From contig NZ_CBFIIK010000003.1 in assembly GCF_965662675.1 (NCBI RefSeq), positions 13,401 through 77,400 on the forward strand: 64,000 nt of DNA, in the 5' to 3' direction. Shown piece after piece: positions 51,169 through 55,695 of the stretch. A model generated the notes under the pieces. That model was given only the letters and a program-made list of their open reading frames with translations. It was not told where the DNA came from and ran no database searches. Source of the DNA: Roseicyclus sp. Its GTDB lineage: Bacteria; Pseudomonadota; Alphaproteobacteria; Rhodobacterales; Rhodobacteraceae. How positions within the stretch are numbered: the stretch's first letter is position 1; every line of letters starts with the position of its first letter. The position numbers were made by a program, and so were the translations under genes.

Positions 51169-53667
51169 ATGAAGACCCATGTCAAAGCCCTTGTCGTCGG
51201 CGGCGGTGCCGTCGGCACCTCGATCGCCTATCACCTTGCCCGGGCGGGCTGGGACGATGTCATGCTGCTCGAGCGCGACGAGTTGACCAGCGGCTCGACC
51301 TGGCATGCGGCAGGTCTGTTGCCCTTGTTCAACATGGGCTTCGCGACGAGCCATATCCATGACTACTCGGTCAGGTTCTACAAGACGCTCGAGGCCGAGA
51401 CCGGGCTGAACGCAGGCTTCTCGGTTGTGGGCAATCTCCGCATGGCGCAGACCGATGCGCGCATGGATGAATACATGCTTTATGCCTCGACCGCAGAGAC
51501 GGTGGGCATTCCCTTCGAATGGTTGACGCCCGATGAGATCAAGGCGCGCTGGCCCCTCGTCAGAACCGAGGATCTGAAGGGCGCAATCTATCACCCGACG
51601 GACGGCTACATAAATCCCGCCGATGTGACCATGGCGATGGCCAAGGGCGCGCGCCAGCGGGGTGTGGTGATCGAGCGGAAATGGCAGGTCGATGGCTATG
51701 CATGGACCGGGTCGGACTGGCGCGTGACCTGCACCAAGATGGTGGAAAAGGGCGGCAATCTTGTGCCATCCGATGAGCAGGTGGTGATCACCGCCGAGCA
51801 TGTGGTGACGGCGACCGGCAACCACGCCCAGCGCACGGCACGGCTTTTGGGGATCAAGATCCCCGCCATTCCCGTCGAGCATCAGTATATCGTGACCGAG
51901 CCGGACCCCGCGCTGGTCGACTACCGCAAGACCAATGGCGAGCATCCGGTTTTGCGCGATGCGGATGCCAAATGGTATGTGCGCGAGGAACGCGGCGGCT
52001 GGATCTTGGGCCCCTATGAGCGGAACGCGCCCGCCTGTTTCGAATACAGCGTGCCCGACAGTTTCCGCGCCGATCTCTTTCCGCTCGATCTGGAACGGAT
52101 CGAAGAAGAATACATGAGCATGATCCATCGGCTGCCCTCGTCCGAAACGGTGGGCCTCAAGGATGATTACAACGGCCCGATCTGCTACACCCCCGATGGC
52201 AACCCGCTGGTCGGCCCCGCGCCGGGCCTGCGCAACATGTGGCTGGCCGAAGGGTTCAGTTTCGGCATCACGGCGGCGGGCGGCACGGGTTACTACCTCG
52301 CCCAGATGATGGTCGAAGGCGAGGCCGAGATCGACATGGCCGCCCTTGACCCCAAGCGCTACGGGTCGTGGATGACGACCGAATACGCCGCGCGCAAGAA
52401 CGAGGAATGCTACGAGAACGTCTTTATCCTGCATCATCCGGACGAGGAGCGCGAAGCCTGCCGCCCCCTGCGCACAGCACCCGCCTATGACCGGCAAAAG
52501 GCGCTCGGCGCGCAGTTCGGCCAGGTGAATGGCTGGGAGCGGCCGAATTACTACGGGCCGATCGGCGCGCCCGAAAGCTTCGATCATGACAGCCGCAGCT
52601 TCCGACGCGGCGCATGGTGGGAGTATGCCAAGGCCGAGGCCGCGGCGATCCGCAGCGCGGCGGGCATCATCGATGCCACGGCATTCGCCAAGCATGTGGT
52701 CAAAGGCCCCGGCGCGGCGGCCTTCCTTGATTGGTTCACCACCAACAAGCTACCCAAGGTCGGGCGCATCAACCTGACCTATGCGCTGACCGACACCGGC
52801 ACGACGCGCACCGAATACACGATCATGCGCGAGGAGGAGGACCGCTTCGTCCTGATTTCCGCCGGGGCGTGGCATGCCTATGACCAAGATTACCTGCTCA
52901 AGGCCGTGGCAGACAAGGAGCCCGAGTTCGGCCGGATCGAGGTCGAGGATTGGACCACCCGTTTCGGCGTCTTCGCCTTGGCCGGGCCGAATTCGCGCGC
53001 GATCCTGAACGAATTGGTGCGCGATGCCGATCCGGGATCGGCGCTGTCGAACAAGCGGTTCCCATGGCTGTCCTTGCGCAAGATCGAGCTGGAGATGTGC
53101 CCGGTCGTGGCCGTGCGCGTGGCCTATACGGGCGAGCTGGGCTGGGAATTGCACCACCCGGTCGAGATGGGCCGCTATTTGTGGGATCGATTGATGACGG
53201 TCGGGGCCAAACATGGGCTCAAGCCCGTGGGCGCGCGGGCGCAGAACTGGCTCCGGCAAGAGAAATCCTATCGCGCTTTCGGCACGGAACTGGGCCGTGA
53301 TGCCACCCCGCTGGAGGCTGGGCTCGACCGCTTTGTGGACCTTGGAAAAGAGTTCCGCGGCAAGCAGGCGATGCTGAACAAGGGCCTGCGGTCGGTTTGC
53401 GTGACGCTGCTGATCGACGGGCCAGCGGATGCCGATCCGTGGGGGCGCGAGGCGCTGCTCCATGACGGGGAAAAGATCGGGCGGCTCACCTCGGGCGGGT
53501 ATTCGGTCGCTTTCGGCAAGCAGATCGGCATGGGCTATGTGCGCCCCGATCTGGCCAAGCCGGGCACCAAGCTCAAGGTCCGGATGTTCCGCGCGTTGTG
53601 GGATGCAGTGGTGACCGAGGACAGCCCCTATGACCCGCAGAACGCGGTGATCCGGGTGGATGGCTAG
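51169..53667 (+). CDS. FAD-dependent oxidoreductase with a GcvT-like C-terminal domain (dimethylglycine/sarcosine dehydrogenase family)
   Basis: 832 aa from MKTHVKALVVGGGAVGTS (GAAGGA SD), a DAO domain plus an aminomethyltransferase-fold C-terminus. Confidence 0.85.
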   Translation: MKTHVKALVVGGGAVGTSIAYHLARAGWDDVMLLERDELTSGSTWHAAGLLPLFNMGFATSHIHDYSVRFYKTLEAETGLNAGFSVVGNLRMAQTDARMDEYMLYASTAETVGIPFEWLTPDEIKARWPLVRTEDLKGAIYHPTDGYINPADVTMAMAKGARQRGVVIERKWQVDGYAWTGSDWRVTCTKMVEKGGNLVPSDEQVVITAEHVVTATGNHAQRTARLLGIKIPAIPVEHQYIVTEPDPALVDYRKTNGEHPVLRDADAKWYVREERGGWILGPYERNAPACFEYSVPDSFRADLFPLDLERIEEEYMSMIHRLPSSETVGLKDDYNGPICYTPDGNPLVGPAPGLRNMWLAEGFSFGITAAGGTGYYLAQMMVEGEAEIDMAALDPKRYGSWMTTEYAARKNEECYENVFILHHPDEEREACRPLRTAPAYDRQKALGAQFGQVNGWERPNYYGPIGAPESFDHDSRSFRRGAWWEYAKAEAAAIRSAAGIIDATAFAKHVVKGPGAAAFLDWFTTNKLPKVGRINLTYALTDTGTTRTEYTIMREEEDRFVLISAGAWHAYDQDYLLKAVADKEPEFGRIEVEDWTTRFGVFALAGPNSRAILNELVRDADPGSALSNKRFPWLSLRKIELEMCPVVAVRVAYTGELGWELHHPVEMGRYLWDRLMTVGAKHGLKPVGARAQNWLRQEKSYRAFGTELGRDATPLEAGLDRFVDLGKEFRGKQAMLNKGLRSVCVTLLIDGPADADPWGREALLHDGEKIGRLTSGGYSVAFGKQIGMGYVRPDLAKPGTKLKVRMFRALWDAVVTEDSPYDPQNAVIRVDG

Positions 53668-54314
53668 GCCGGGCGGTCGAACACCAAGAGCAGGTTGTTG
53701 GCCGGCATGGGGATGGTTTCGGCATGGGCCAGCCCATGGCGTTGCAGCATCGCGATCACATCGGCCATGTCTTTGTAGCCGATAGCGGGGTCTTGGGCGC
53801 GCAGGGCGGCGTCGAAATCTGCATCGCCTTGGCTGGTCGTGCAGCCATCGCGCAAGAACGGGCCGTAGAGGGCAAAGCGCCCGCCGGGGGCGAGCGCTGC
53901 GGCGACCTCGGCCAGCAAGGTCGTGACCTCAGGCATGGAAATCAGGTGCAACAGGTTGATCAGCACGATCAGATCGGCAGGGCCGTGATCCTTGGTCCAG
54001 CCCGGTTGCGCGGCATCCAGATCGCGCGGGGGCAGGATATTGGGCAAACCGGCATCGGCCACCCATGCCGTGATCGAGGCGCGGCGGGTCGGTTCGGGAT
54101 CGGTCGGCTGCCAGACTATCCCCGGCATGGCGGCGGCGAAGGCGATCACATGCTCGCCGGTGCCCGAGGCGATTTCCAAGGCGCAGCCATGCTGGGGTGC
54201 GATGCGGGTCAATTCGGCGGTGATGGCCTCGCGGTTCCGGAGCGCCGAAGGGGCCGAGATGCGCGGATCGGCGGTTTTCGCGGCCGCATCGGGCAGGTCG
54301 AGCTTGCGGATCAT
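53664..54314 (-). CDS. DUF938-family SAM-dependent methyltransferase-like protein
   Basis: Starts MIRKLD (ATG at 54314, ATGA overlap with the upstream gene); SAPSALRNREAI...LEIASGTGEH pattern. Confidence 0.7.
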   Translation of the reverse strand: MIRKLDLPDAAAKTADPRISAPSALRNREAITAELTRIAPQHGCALEIASGTGEHVIAFAAAMPGIVWQPTDPEPTRRASITAWVADAGLPNILPPRDLDAAQPGWTKDHGPADLIVLINLLHLISMPEVTTLLAEVAAALAPGGRFALYGPFLRDGCTTSQGDADFDAALRAQDPAIGYKDMADVIAMLQRHGLAHAETIPMPANNLLLVFDRPA

Positions 54315-55405
54315 GCCACGCCACCCCGAAACCGCGCGGGCGACAGCGCCGCAACCAGATCGGCGTCCAACTCTGGTACGCGACCTGCGACCAGATCGGC
54401 CACAAGCCGCGAGGCCGCGGGGGCGGTCTGGAACCCGTAGCCGCCCTGCCCCGCGACCCAGACAAAGGCGGGATCGACCGGGTCGGGGCCAAGCACCAGC
54501 AACCGGTCGGGCGCGAAACTCCGCAAGCCTGCCCAAGAGGCTGTCAGCCGCGTGACCTCGGGCGTGACGAAGTCCTGATAGCGGGCGATCCCCTCGGCCA
54601 GTACCATGTCATCGGGCCATGCGTCATGGGGTTCGCTCACCGGGTCTTCCTCGGCGGGTGAGATGATGAGTTGCCCGGCATCGGGCTTGGCATACCATGT
54701 CTCGCCTGCGCCCATCAGCATCGGCCAGTCTGAAATGTCATGGCCGCCCGGCGCGGGGATACGCGCGACCGAGCGGCGCAAGGGCGTGATCCCGATGGGC
54801 GCGATCCCCGCCATTGCGGCGATCTGATCGGCCCAAGCACCGGCGGCATTCACAAGGATGCGGGCCTGATGATCGCCGTTTGTGGTCCTGACACGCCAGC
54901 CGCCCGAGATGCGCGTGATCGCGGTCACAGGCGCGCCTGTTGTCACCTGCCCGTCATGGGCGCGGATATGCCTTGCGAAATGCTGGATCAGCCGGTCGGT
55001 GTCGATATCCCATGCCTCGGTATGGATCGCGGCGGCATGGATCGCGGCGGGGTTCAGGATCGGCACACGCGCCACCGCTTCATCCACCGGGATCGGGGTC
55101 AGATGCATATCGGCGACGTCATGGTCGAATGCCGCCTGCGCGCCCGGCCCGGCCAAGACCATCAGGCCACGCGGGCTGAGAACGCCACCATCAAGGCTGT
55201 CATGATCGGCGCGCGAGGCAAGGTTAAGCGCCACAGTCGCAGGCTTGCCATACTGCGCCTCGTAAAGTGCAGCCGACCGGCCCGAGGCGTGATAGGCAAG
55301 CGCCGCCTCGCCCTCGAGCAGCAGCACCCGGCCCAGTTCGGCCAGCTGCGCCCCGGCGGAGACCCCCGCAATGCCACCGCCGATGATGAGGAAATCATGG
55401 GTCAT
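54311..55405 (-). CDS. FAD-dependent oxidoreductase (DAO family)
   Basis: Starts MTHDFLIIGGGIAGVSAG (ATG at 55405). It has no SD of its own. The upstream in-frame extension was rejected. Confidence 0.8.
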   Translation of the reverse strand: MTHDFLIIGGGIAGVSAGAQLAELGRVLLLEGEAALAYHASGRSAALYEAQYGKPATVALNLASRADHDSLDGGVLSPRGLMVLAGPGAQAAFDHDVADMHLTPIPVDEAVARVPILNPAAIHAAAIHTEAWDIDTDRLIQHFARHIRAHDGQVTTGAPVTAITRISGGWRVRTTNGDHQARILVNAAGAWADQIAAMAGIAPIGITPLRRSVARIPAPGGHDISDWPMLMGAGETWYAKPDAGQLIISPAEEDPVSEPHDAWPDDMVLAEGIARYQDFVTPEVTRLTASWAGLRSFAPDRLLVLGPDPVDPAFVWVAGQGGYGFQTAPAASRLVADLVAGRVPELDADLVAALSPARFRGGVA

Positions 55406-55473
55406 GGGTGGATGGGTGGCATGGCGGCAGGGGTGGTGGCAAGGGGGGGCGATTGAGGCTCTGTTGATGGCAT
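55402..55473 (-). CDS. Candidate 23-codon Pro-rich leader ORF (MPSTEPQSPPLATTPAAMPPIHP)
   Basis: AGGAGG lies 8 nt upstream of the ATG at 55473. The stop TGA overlaps the ATG of the FAD oxidoreductase (ATGA). Confidence 0.3.
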   Translation of the reverse strand: MPSTEPQSPPLATTPAAMPPIHP

Positions 55474-55568
55474 GGATGCCCCCTCCTGACGGCATCGCAA
55501 TGTGCCAATGTGATGTGTGTTGAAGTCATCACAGAAGGAGAGGACATCCATGCCATCAACAGAGCCCC
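55455..55568 (-). ncRNA. Structured leader element: 32-bp stem closing two small hairpins
   Basis: Arms 55455-55486 and 55537-55568 have a 22-bp perfect core. The 3 mismatches become G-U pairs only on the minus-strand RNA. Inner hairpins are TGTGATG/CATCACA and GGCA/TGCC. Confidence 0.45.
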
Positions 55569-55695
55569 CAAAAGAAACCAAAATCTAGGGAAACTCATGG
55601 CGGCAACGATACTTCGTTAACTGGAATATCCCCCCGCGTGGCTCAATCATAAAGTGAAAATTCTTCTGGCATACAAGATCAACATCACCCCCCCC

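Follow-up and report, generated by a model that had tools for sequence, protein, structure and literature searches.

A palindrome upstream of a DAO-family oxidoreductase gene in Roseicyclus sp. is probably a relic of two nested insertion sequences

Between the genes for a D-2-hydroxyacid dehydrogenase and a DAO-family flavin adenine dinucleotide (FAD)-dependent oxidoreductase (hereafter DAO), the 64-kb stretch of Roseicyclus sp. DNA analysed here (the window) carries a palindrome that can fold into a long stem (Table 1). With a probability of about 85 per cent, we regard this stem as a non-autonomous remnant, 110 bp long, of two insertion sequences (ISs), one nested in the other, and not as a regulator that evolved for DAO. 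The first-pass annotation of the window had proposed that it looks like a translational control device, which would hide the Shine–Dalgarno (SD) sequence and AUG of a 23-codon upstream open reading frame (uORF) coupled to DAO, and had offered a search for extra copies as a check that could refute this view. The same palindrome was found at unrelated sites, is absent from 16 of 16 orthologous loci, and is a mobile-element-derived repeat without link to DAO, so that the proposal falls by its own check. Together, the extra copies and the empty orthologous sites settle the question of riboregulator versus IS relic.

The structure of the palindrome is itself real and far from chance. Its arms (55457–55487 and 55536–55566) are 31 nt each, 94 per cent complementary, and separated by 48 nt; the arms proposed earlier (55455–55486 and 55537–55568) denote the same repeat with two weak pairs added. 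The perfect core of 22 nt is confined to these two arms within the 64-kb window, where 0 occurrences are expected by chance. When positions 55395–55600 (206 nt) are folded as RNA, the minus strand reaches −85.7 kcal/mol (z = −6.73) with the long stem uninterrupted, and the plus strand −90.7 kcal/mol (z = −4.40) with the stem broken where C·A replaces G·U; the stem of the 110-nt palindrome alone amounts to −73 kcal/mol. Folding of both strands bears out the earlier observation that the G–U wobbles arise on the minus-strand transcript only, though this asymmetry is common to most copies of the palindrome (9 of the 12 described below; IS-sense cells are unpaired at columns 23–27) and is inherited from the element family, not local. 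One of the two inner hairpins noted before, of 7 bp, was recovered as described, whereas the other, given as a 4-bp GGCA/TGCC pairing, is predicted to be a 5-bp one (GGCAT/GUGCC); both are kept in the parent IS. Five pairs covary from arm to arm across the copies, above all shuffles, and the second repeat tip covaries with the left one. Because such covariation is expected if both arms copy the same IS end, it gives no argument for an RNA function. Rfam matched no family in either the window region or the full-length IS, and a promoter and terminator scan found no promoter-like or terminator-like site, and no U-tract terminator, in or beside the palindrome.

A BLASTN search of plasmids with positions 55440–55585 matched 289 records from Rhizobium, Sulfitobacter, Sinorhizobium, Phaeobacter, Paracoccus, and other alphaproteobacterial genera, and the majority of these matches cover window positions 55457–55552 at 85–93 per cent identity. 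A pattern specific to the short palindromic form, scanned over one genome per bacterial species, retrieved 10 DNA stretches, all of them from Rhodobacterales (Paracoccaceae, Cypionkella, Natronohydrobacter, Pseudodonghicola, Rhodobacter, Sulfitobacter, Ruegeria, and other Rhodobacterales); one metagenome-assembled genome (MAG) contains two copies, and two Cypionkella contigs share one copy between them. The same pattern gave no copy in viral contigs. The distinct further copies number 11, including one on an Antarctobacter plasmid, and each is ~110 bp long, with the same ends and unrelated flanks. Aligned with the window's own, the resulting 12 copies have a mean column identity of 91 per cent, and all of them start with GGCTCTGTTGATGG and end with CCATCAACAGAGCC. 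Homologues of DAO, of the DUF938 gene that follows it, and of the 2-hydroxyacid dehydrogenase adjoin none of the other copies, some of which lie 5′ and some 3′ of genes, most being downstream of genes or between convergent genes. The two copies in the Paracoccaceae MAG (L010; positions 705–814 and 1642–1751) are in opposite orientation, 836 bp apart, and both have ACAAATAGG beside the IS-left tip.

Most of the palindrome can be traced to the left end of an IS1111-type (IS110-family) IS. L001, L003, L007, and L008 each continue from the matching stretch into a gene for an IS110-family transposase, with its ATG at the equivalent of window positions 55550–55552; the plasmids in which the left end leads directly into such a gene include those of Paracoccus yeei and Sulfitobacter and others. 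The transposase carries the Pfam domains PF01548 and PF02371; among NCBIfam models, it matches NF033542 (IS110 family RNA-guided transposase; E = 3.8e-94). The anatomy of the parent was read from the full-length copies L007, L008, and L003/L009. In order, these consist of TGATGGC, the subterminal repeat GTGGATGCCCC, ~60 nt with two hairpins, an SD and ATG, a gene for a 342-amino-acid transposase, a 273-nt non-coding region, GGGGCATCCAT, and the 3-nt extension ACA. Members of the IS1111 group are recognized by 11-bp subterminal repeats, 7/3-nt extensions, and a short left and a long right end, and they encode a guide RNA downstream of the transposase gene (PMC11208160, PMC11187229). The parent element shares with this family (IS4321/IS5075, ISEc11, ISKpn4, ISPa11; seekRNA or bridge RNA) the DEDD (IS110-type) transposase, present in L007, L008, and L003, the 11-bp subterminal inverted repeats (about 11–13 bp in the published criteria) with 7-nt left and 3-nt right extensions, and a long non-coding region 3′ of the transposase gene with predicted target-complementary guide segments. 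The window retains the ~88-nt left end only, without transposase, right end, or guide-RNA region, and its match to the IS is confined to 55457–55552; it holds a fragment of an IS1111-type IS, not a member of the family.

The outermost nucleotides of the palindrome belong to a different mobile element. Every full-length copy of the IS1111-type IS has the tip GGCTCTGT on its left, and the GGCTCT that stands to the left of every copy is target DNA. When the left and right flanks of L003 were joined, the reconstructed uninterrupted target proved to be contiguous in many plasmids and to represent the left terminal repeat of ISPko1-type elements. ISPko1 has been placed in the IS903 group of the IS5 family (PMC3281130), and its ends read GGCTCTGTTGCACAAATC, with an inverted copy at the other end. 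As the reconstruction shows, the Rhodobacterales IS1111-type element enters the 18-bp IS903-group repeat between its positions 8 and 9 (GGCTCTGT^TGCACAAATC). Like the rest of the IS1111 family, it inserts site- and orientation-specifically and without target duplication, and it resembles IS4321/IS5075 in having as its target a terminal inverted repeat that belongs to another transposable element; the repeats used by IS4321/IS5075 are those of Tn21-family transposons, whereas the parent element targets those of IS903-group IS5-family elements. We found no report in the literature of an IS1111-type element with the latter target.

The non-coding region of L007 and L003 contains ATTTGTGCA-G-GAGCC, which is the complement of TGCACAAAT and of the GGCTC of the target. 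In L008 (3527–3803), from the Pseudosulfitobacter plasmid pSMR1-1, the IS1111-type copy interrupts another IS110-family transposase gene, the reading frame of which runs through ATGCGGTTTGTT and resumes at GCAGTAAAG exactly after the insert. The non-coding region of this copy has TTTACTGCA where the others have ATTTGTGCA, and the substituted segment complements the copy's own right flank TGCAGTAAA. To judge from these sequences, the L008 guide looks like a case of natural re-programming. The data point to an RNA-guided IS1111-type element that targets IS903-group terminal repeats in marine Rhodobacterales and seems to collapse repeatedly into small palindromes; the guide of one copy appears to have changed naturally.

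How such a collapse may have come about is suggested by the make-up of the window element, which consists of the repeat tip, the IS left end, the inverted first ~24 nt of the left end, and the inverted tip. Full-length copies terminate on the right in GGGGCATCCAT-ACA and not in GCCATCA; in the palindrome, the place of the IS right end is taken by another left end in inverted orientation, and with this left-end/left-end arrangement the stem grows from its native 17 bp to 31 bp. Because each end is made up of the tip and the left end, and the palindrome goes no further than the tip, the simplest origin is a double hit followed by a deletion. An IS1111-type element would have inserted in both terminal repeats of one IS903-group element, and everything between two 17-nt direct repeats would then have been deleted, these repeats being one copy's left-end positions ~73–89 (AGGAG..CATCCATG) and, in the other copy, the complement of positions ~8–24 (the tip). 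The short forms interleave with three IS lineages at 92–99 per cent identity: L014 and L002 pair with the L005 type (96–99 per cent), L012 and L017 with the L004 type (97 per cent), and the window group with the L001 type (92–94 per cent). Since they group with three lineages, we favour repeated formation over the spread of one element.

Several observations weigh against this origin. The precursor, an IS903-group element with an IS1111-type element in both of its repeats, was not retrieved, and the 64-kb window contains no transposase or other IS fragment. Only one of the 12 copies (L017) is flanked by a perfect 9-bp direct repeat, such as IS903-group insertion should leave, and no target duplication was found at the other 11.

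Three other derivations were considered and set aside. On the Antarctobacter plasmid pSMS3-1 (L002), an IS6-family element (1625–2610) directly abuts the palindrome copy, and the palindrome tip GGCTCTGTTG resembles IS6-family terminal repeats as well. An origin from the IS6 family, to which the likeness of the tip to IS6100/IS26 repeats and the abutting transposase had pointed, was dropped because that IS6 element has ends of its own (GGTCCG...) and because the tip, with the IS1111-type insert taken out, fits the IS903-group repeat along 18 bp. Insertion of the IS into a pre-existing palindrome was dropped because in L008 the whole left end, hairpins included, interrupts a transposase gene. 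Fold-back (snap-back) synthesis from a single IS copy is less likely, given that 12 of 12 copies are palindromic up to the repeat tip (±2 bp) and no further.

Table 1. Coordinates of the palindrome, its component parts, and the adjoining genes and leader elements in the window.
Feature	Position	Strand	Remarks
Palindromic, non-coding, MITE-like element, 110 bp	55457..55566	.	Limits from 12 aligned copies with unrelated flanks
GGCTCTGT, outer tip of IS903-group (ISPko1-like) 18-bp terminal inverted repeat	55457..55464	+	
Left end of IS1111-type IS	55465..55552	+	87–93 per cent identical to the stretch directly 5′ of plasmid IS110-family transposase genes
7-nt extension TGATGGC	55465–55471	+	Part of IS left end
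Subterminal repeat ATGGATGCCCC	55472–55482	+	Part of IS left end
Inner hairpin 1, 5 bp (GGCAT/GTGCC)	55491..55506	.	98 per cent of cells paired
Inner hairpin 2, 7 bp (TGTGATG/CATCACA)	55509..55533	.	96 per cent of cells paired
Transposase SD AGGAGAGGA	55536–55544	+	Part of IS left end
Transposase ATG position	55550–55552	+	Part of IS left end, inside right arm
GCCATCA, inverted copy of 7-nt left extension	55552..55558	+	Closes element as inverted left end
ACAGAGCC, second, inverted IS903-group repeat tip	55559..55566	+	
DUF938 methyltransferase-fold gene	53664..54314	-	Start overlaps DAO stop (ATGA)
DAO-family FAD-dependent oxidoreductase gene, 364 amino acids	54311..55405	-	Pfam PF01266, E = 7e-49; start backed by homologues
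6-codon mini-uORF, ATG CCA CCC ATC CAC CCA TGA (MPPIHP and stop)	55402..55422	-	Last six codons of the 23-codon uORF
23-codon uORF, MPSTEPQSPPLATTPAAMPPIHP and stop	55402..55473	-	AUG 55473 and SD 55487–55482 in 3′ arm
Native C-rich DAO leader	55406..55456	-	Conserved in relatives without palindrome
Orphan spacer, 129 nt, low GC (47–55 per cent)	55567..55695	.	Palindrome to 2-hydroxyacid dehydrogenase stop
D-2-hydroxyacid dehydrogenase gene, 328 amino acids	55696..56682	-	Length equal in relatives

The IS origin also accounts for the translation signals in the stem. The consensus fold of the full-length left ends pairs the tip GGCGTGGATGCCCCTCC with the transposase SD and ATG and contains both inner hairpins, with slight covariation, and this masking resembles a common way in which ISs block translation of read-through transcripts. 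Hairpins at IS ends that hide transposase translation signals occur in IS10, IS50, and others (cf. Mahillon and Chandler 1998). In the full-length element, the sequestering pairing thus involves the strand opposite to the one proposed by the first-pass annotation; the window, unlike elements with IS10/IS50-type sequestration, has no transposase gene behind the hairpin, and its DAO-sense signals are a mere mirror image. All of the minus-strand features reported there are present in the sequence, namely AGGAGG followed after 8 nt by the ATG at 55473, the 23 codons, and a TGA that overlaps the DAO ATG at 55405. Yet this SD, spacer, and AUG complement the left arm, by which the plus-strand transposase signals are normally masked, and the mirror AUG exists because CATG is its own complement. 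The start of the 23-codon uORF is not conserved, being ACG in 6 of the 11 other copies and absent, like the whole element, from the orthologous loci. More generally, where a stem conceals an SD and AUG in the manner of a riboregulator, it can be an IS remnant, mirroring the hairpin that controls transposase translation.

The orthologous loci comprised 16 DAO loci with upstream sequence and 67–91 per cent identity (L020–L027, L029, L034, L040, and L105–L109). None of the 16 has the palindrome, and those with enough flank keep the order of 2-hydroxyacid dehydrogenase, intervening DNA, DAO, and DUF938; the conservation of position and structure upstream of orthologs that marks a cis-regulatory RNA leader was not observed. 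In the wider clade, a gene for 293 amino acids lies between the dehydrogenase and DAO and ends 33 nt before DAO (L022, L040, L105, L107, and L108), closer relatives (L020 and L021) have other cargo in this place, and the window holds no remnant of the 293-amino-acid gene. The palindrome sits in a hypervariable spot where the source genome probably lost the gene that precedes DAO in its relatives. The adjacent orphan spacer (55567–55695) has no plasmid match and no depth in the related populations X2–X4. Metagenome contigs of related populations cover the flanking genes and not 55556–55678, and the interior of the palindrome is over-represented in those same metagenome runs. The spacer between the dehydrogenase and DAO (55406–55695 in the window; compared in L020–L022 and L105–L108) is hypervariable, with a G8 run at one limit and a C7 run at the other.

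DAO homologues are ~360 amino acids long and begin with MTHDFLIIGGG, and because of these lengths and N-termini we place the DAO start at 55405 and not at the in-frame ATG 55495. As had been reported, no purine-rich SD precedes 55405, and there is likewise none before DAO in any ortholog locus. What is conserved in front of this start is a 6-codon mini-uORF, which begins 17 nt before the DAO ATG, outside the stem, and whose TGA overlaps that ATG except in L108. It is kept in 15 of the 16 ortholog loci, including all 13 of at least ~76 per cent identity, Roseicyclus among them, and is missing in L034. It starts with ATG or GTG, has no indels, and follows the pattern (M/V)-(P/A)-P-(I/L/M)-x-P: MPPIHP in the window, MPPIYP in L020, MPPIAP in L021, L022, L025, and L026, MPPIPT in L023, MPPLVP in L024, MPPLRP in L106, MAPMRP in L105, MAAIRP in L027 and L029, VPPMRP in L040, VAPIRP in L107, and VPPIGP in L108, where it runs on without an overlapping TGA. 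An additional open reading frame (ORF) is found at −23 in L109.

Of the earlier claim of an ATGA-coupled uORF, what survives is a candidate 6-codon form outside the stem that overlaps the start of the SD-less DAO gene by ATGA; the 23-codon form is not conserved. The conserved stretch is only 17 nt, without an SD of its own, and is compatible with a putative relay that would couple DAO translation to upstream translation. Consecutive prolines are not conserved among the variants (MAAIRP, MAPMRP, VAPIRP), so that the proline/EF-P-sensitive coupling that had been suggested is not supported. The DAO stop and the DUF938 start overlap in the same manner, as ATGA at 54311–54314, and do so too in the closest relatives L020, L021, and L109. 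In having a TGA that overlaps the SD-less DAO ATG at conserved position and length, as at the DAO/DUF938 junction, the mini-uORF is like known cases of ATGA translational coupling and short leader ORFs; it differs from them in lacking its own SD, is independent of the stem, and is known here from sequence. For the DAO/DUF938 operon, the feature of interest is this conserved 6-codon uORF, not the stem.

Against this background, it is extremely improbable that the stem is a dedicated sensor (a thermosensor, a ligand- or protein-controlled stem, or a proline/EF-P-sensitive device) that gates the 23-codon uORF and, through it, the SD-less DAO. In favour of a sensor, the 3′ arm contains a strong SD with an AUG after an 8-nt spacer, the stop of the uORF overlaps the start of a gene that lacks an SD of its own, and RNA thermometers and riboswitch-type leaders do have stems that cover an SD and AUG. 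But the stem is missing from all ortholog loci, the same palindrome stands in unrelated contexts, the SD and AUG mirror transposase signals, with ACG for AUG in more than half of the other copies, and the Pro–Pro pair varies within the conserved part of the uORF. A stem of −73 kcal/mol over 110 nt is, moreover, far too stable for physiological melting, and Rfam offered no family to which it could be assigned. Also unlikely, if less so, is that a hairpin derived from mobile DNA has been co-opted and now stabilizes or processes (via RNase III) the DAO–DUF938 mRNA or insulates it from the 2-hydroxyacid dehydrogenase transcript; alternatively, transcripts starting inside the element would make the mirror SD and AUG accessible and send ribosomes via the uORF into DAO. 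The palindrome lies 51 nt upstream of the DAO start, between co-directional genes, the mRNA strand is the more stable strand, and two further copies (L015 and L018) likewise precede a gene in matching relative orientation. Co-option is at odds with the lack of a U-tract terminator or promoter-like site in the scan, the location of most other copies 3′ of genes or between convergent genes, its observation in one population only, and a strand asymmetry that was inherited from the family. If the stem is a relic, as we prefer, its effect on DAO is probably little or none, because the C-rich leader and the 6-codon uORF lie wholly outside the element; read-through RNA would just have a highly stable hairpin 51 nt ahead of the DAO start.

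More plausible, though still doubtful, is that the 110-bp unit is not an immobile in-place deletion scar but an active miniature inverted-repeat transposable element (MITE), mobilized in trans by an IS903-group transposase or by an IS1111-type transposase with its guide RNA. IS903-group insertion gives a 9-bp target duplication, and the perfect 9-bp direct repeat at L017 would be this hallmark. In addition, the copies of the window, L010, L019, L011, and L016, which come from several genera, are 94–100 per cent identical over the left-end part, and a MITE-like element tied to an IS110-family IS is on record (MITEPpu9, linked to ISPpu9; PMC12288879). The window element is, like MITEs and MITEPpu9, short (110 bp), non-coding, bounded by inverted repeats (arms of 31 nt), akin to an autonomous IS at its ends, and present at several unrelated sites between genes (12 copies across genomes, 2 of them in one MAG). 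It departs from them in combining pieces of two IS families, in that both of its ends are left ends, in its low number of 1–2 copies per genome, and in the target duplication, which is seen at L017 only and not at each copy. Against mobility, only 8–10 of the 18 repeat positions are retained, an inverted left end stands in place of the IS right end, the guide-RNA region is absent, and the clustering of the short forms with three IS lineages fits repeated formation better than the spread of one element.

A further suggestion, which we offer as speculative and rather unlikely, joins two separate ideas: that the palindromic short form is a regular by-product of RNA-guided IS1111-type recombination, and that the 6-codon uORF is a true ribosome relay to the SD-less DAO start. 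For the former, an IS present in both IS903-group repeats would have its outward-lying left ends joined and the DNA between them lost, so that 110-bp left-end/left-end palindromes would be made repeatedly and could then persist or spread. If true, bridge/seekRNA recombinases would have a previously undescribed means of generating non-autonomous elements and of disabling a rival IS family.

Two minor features of the surrounding operon may be recorded. The C-rich leader sequence CCCCTTGCCACCACCCC (55406–55450, minus strand) is common to the window and Roseicyclus marinus (L106), and its template strand is G-rich, with several runs of G3–G7. In the Roseicyclus clade (L105, L106, and L108), a further ORF of 124–155 amino acids lies between DAO and DUF938.

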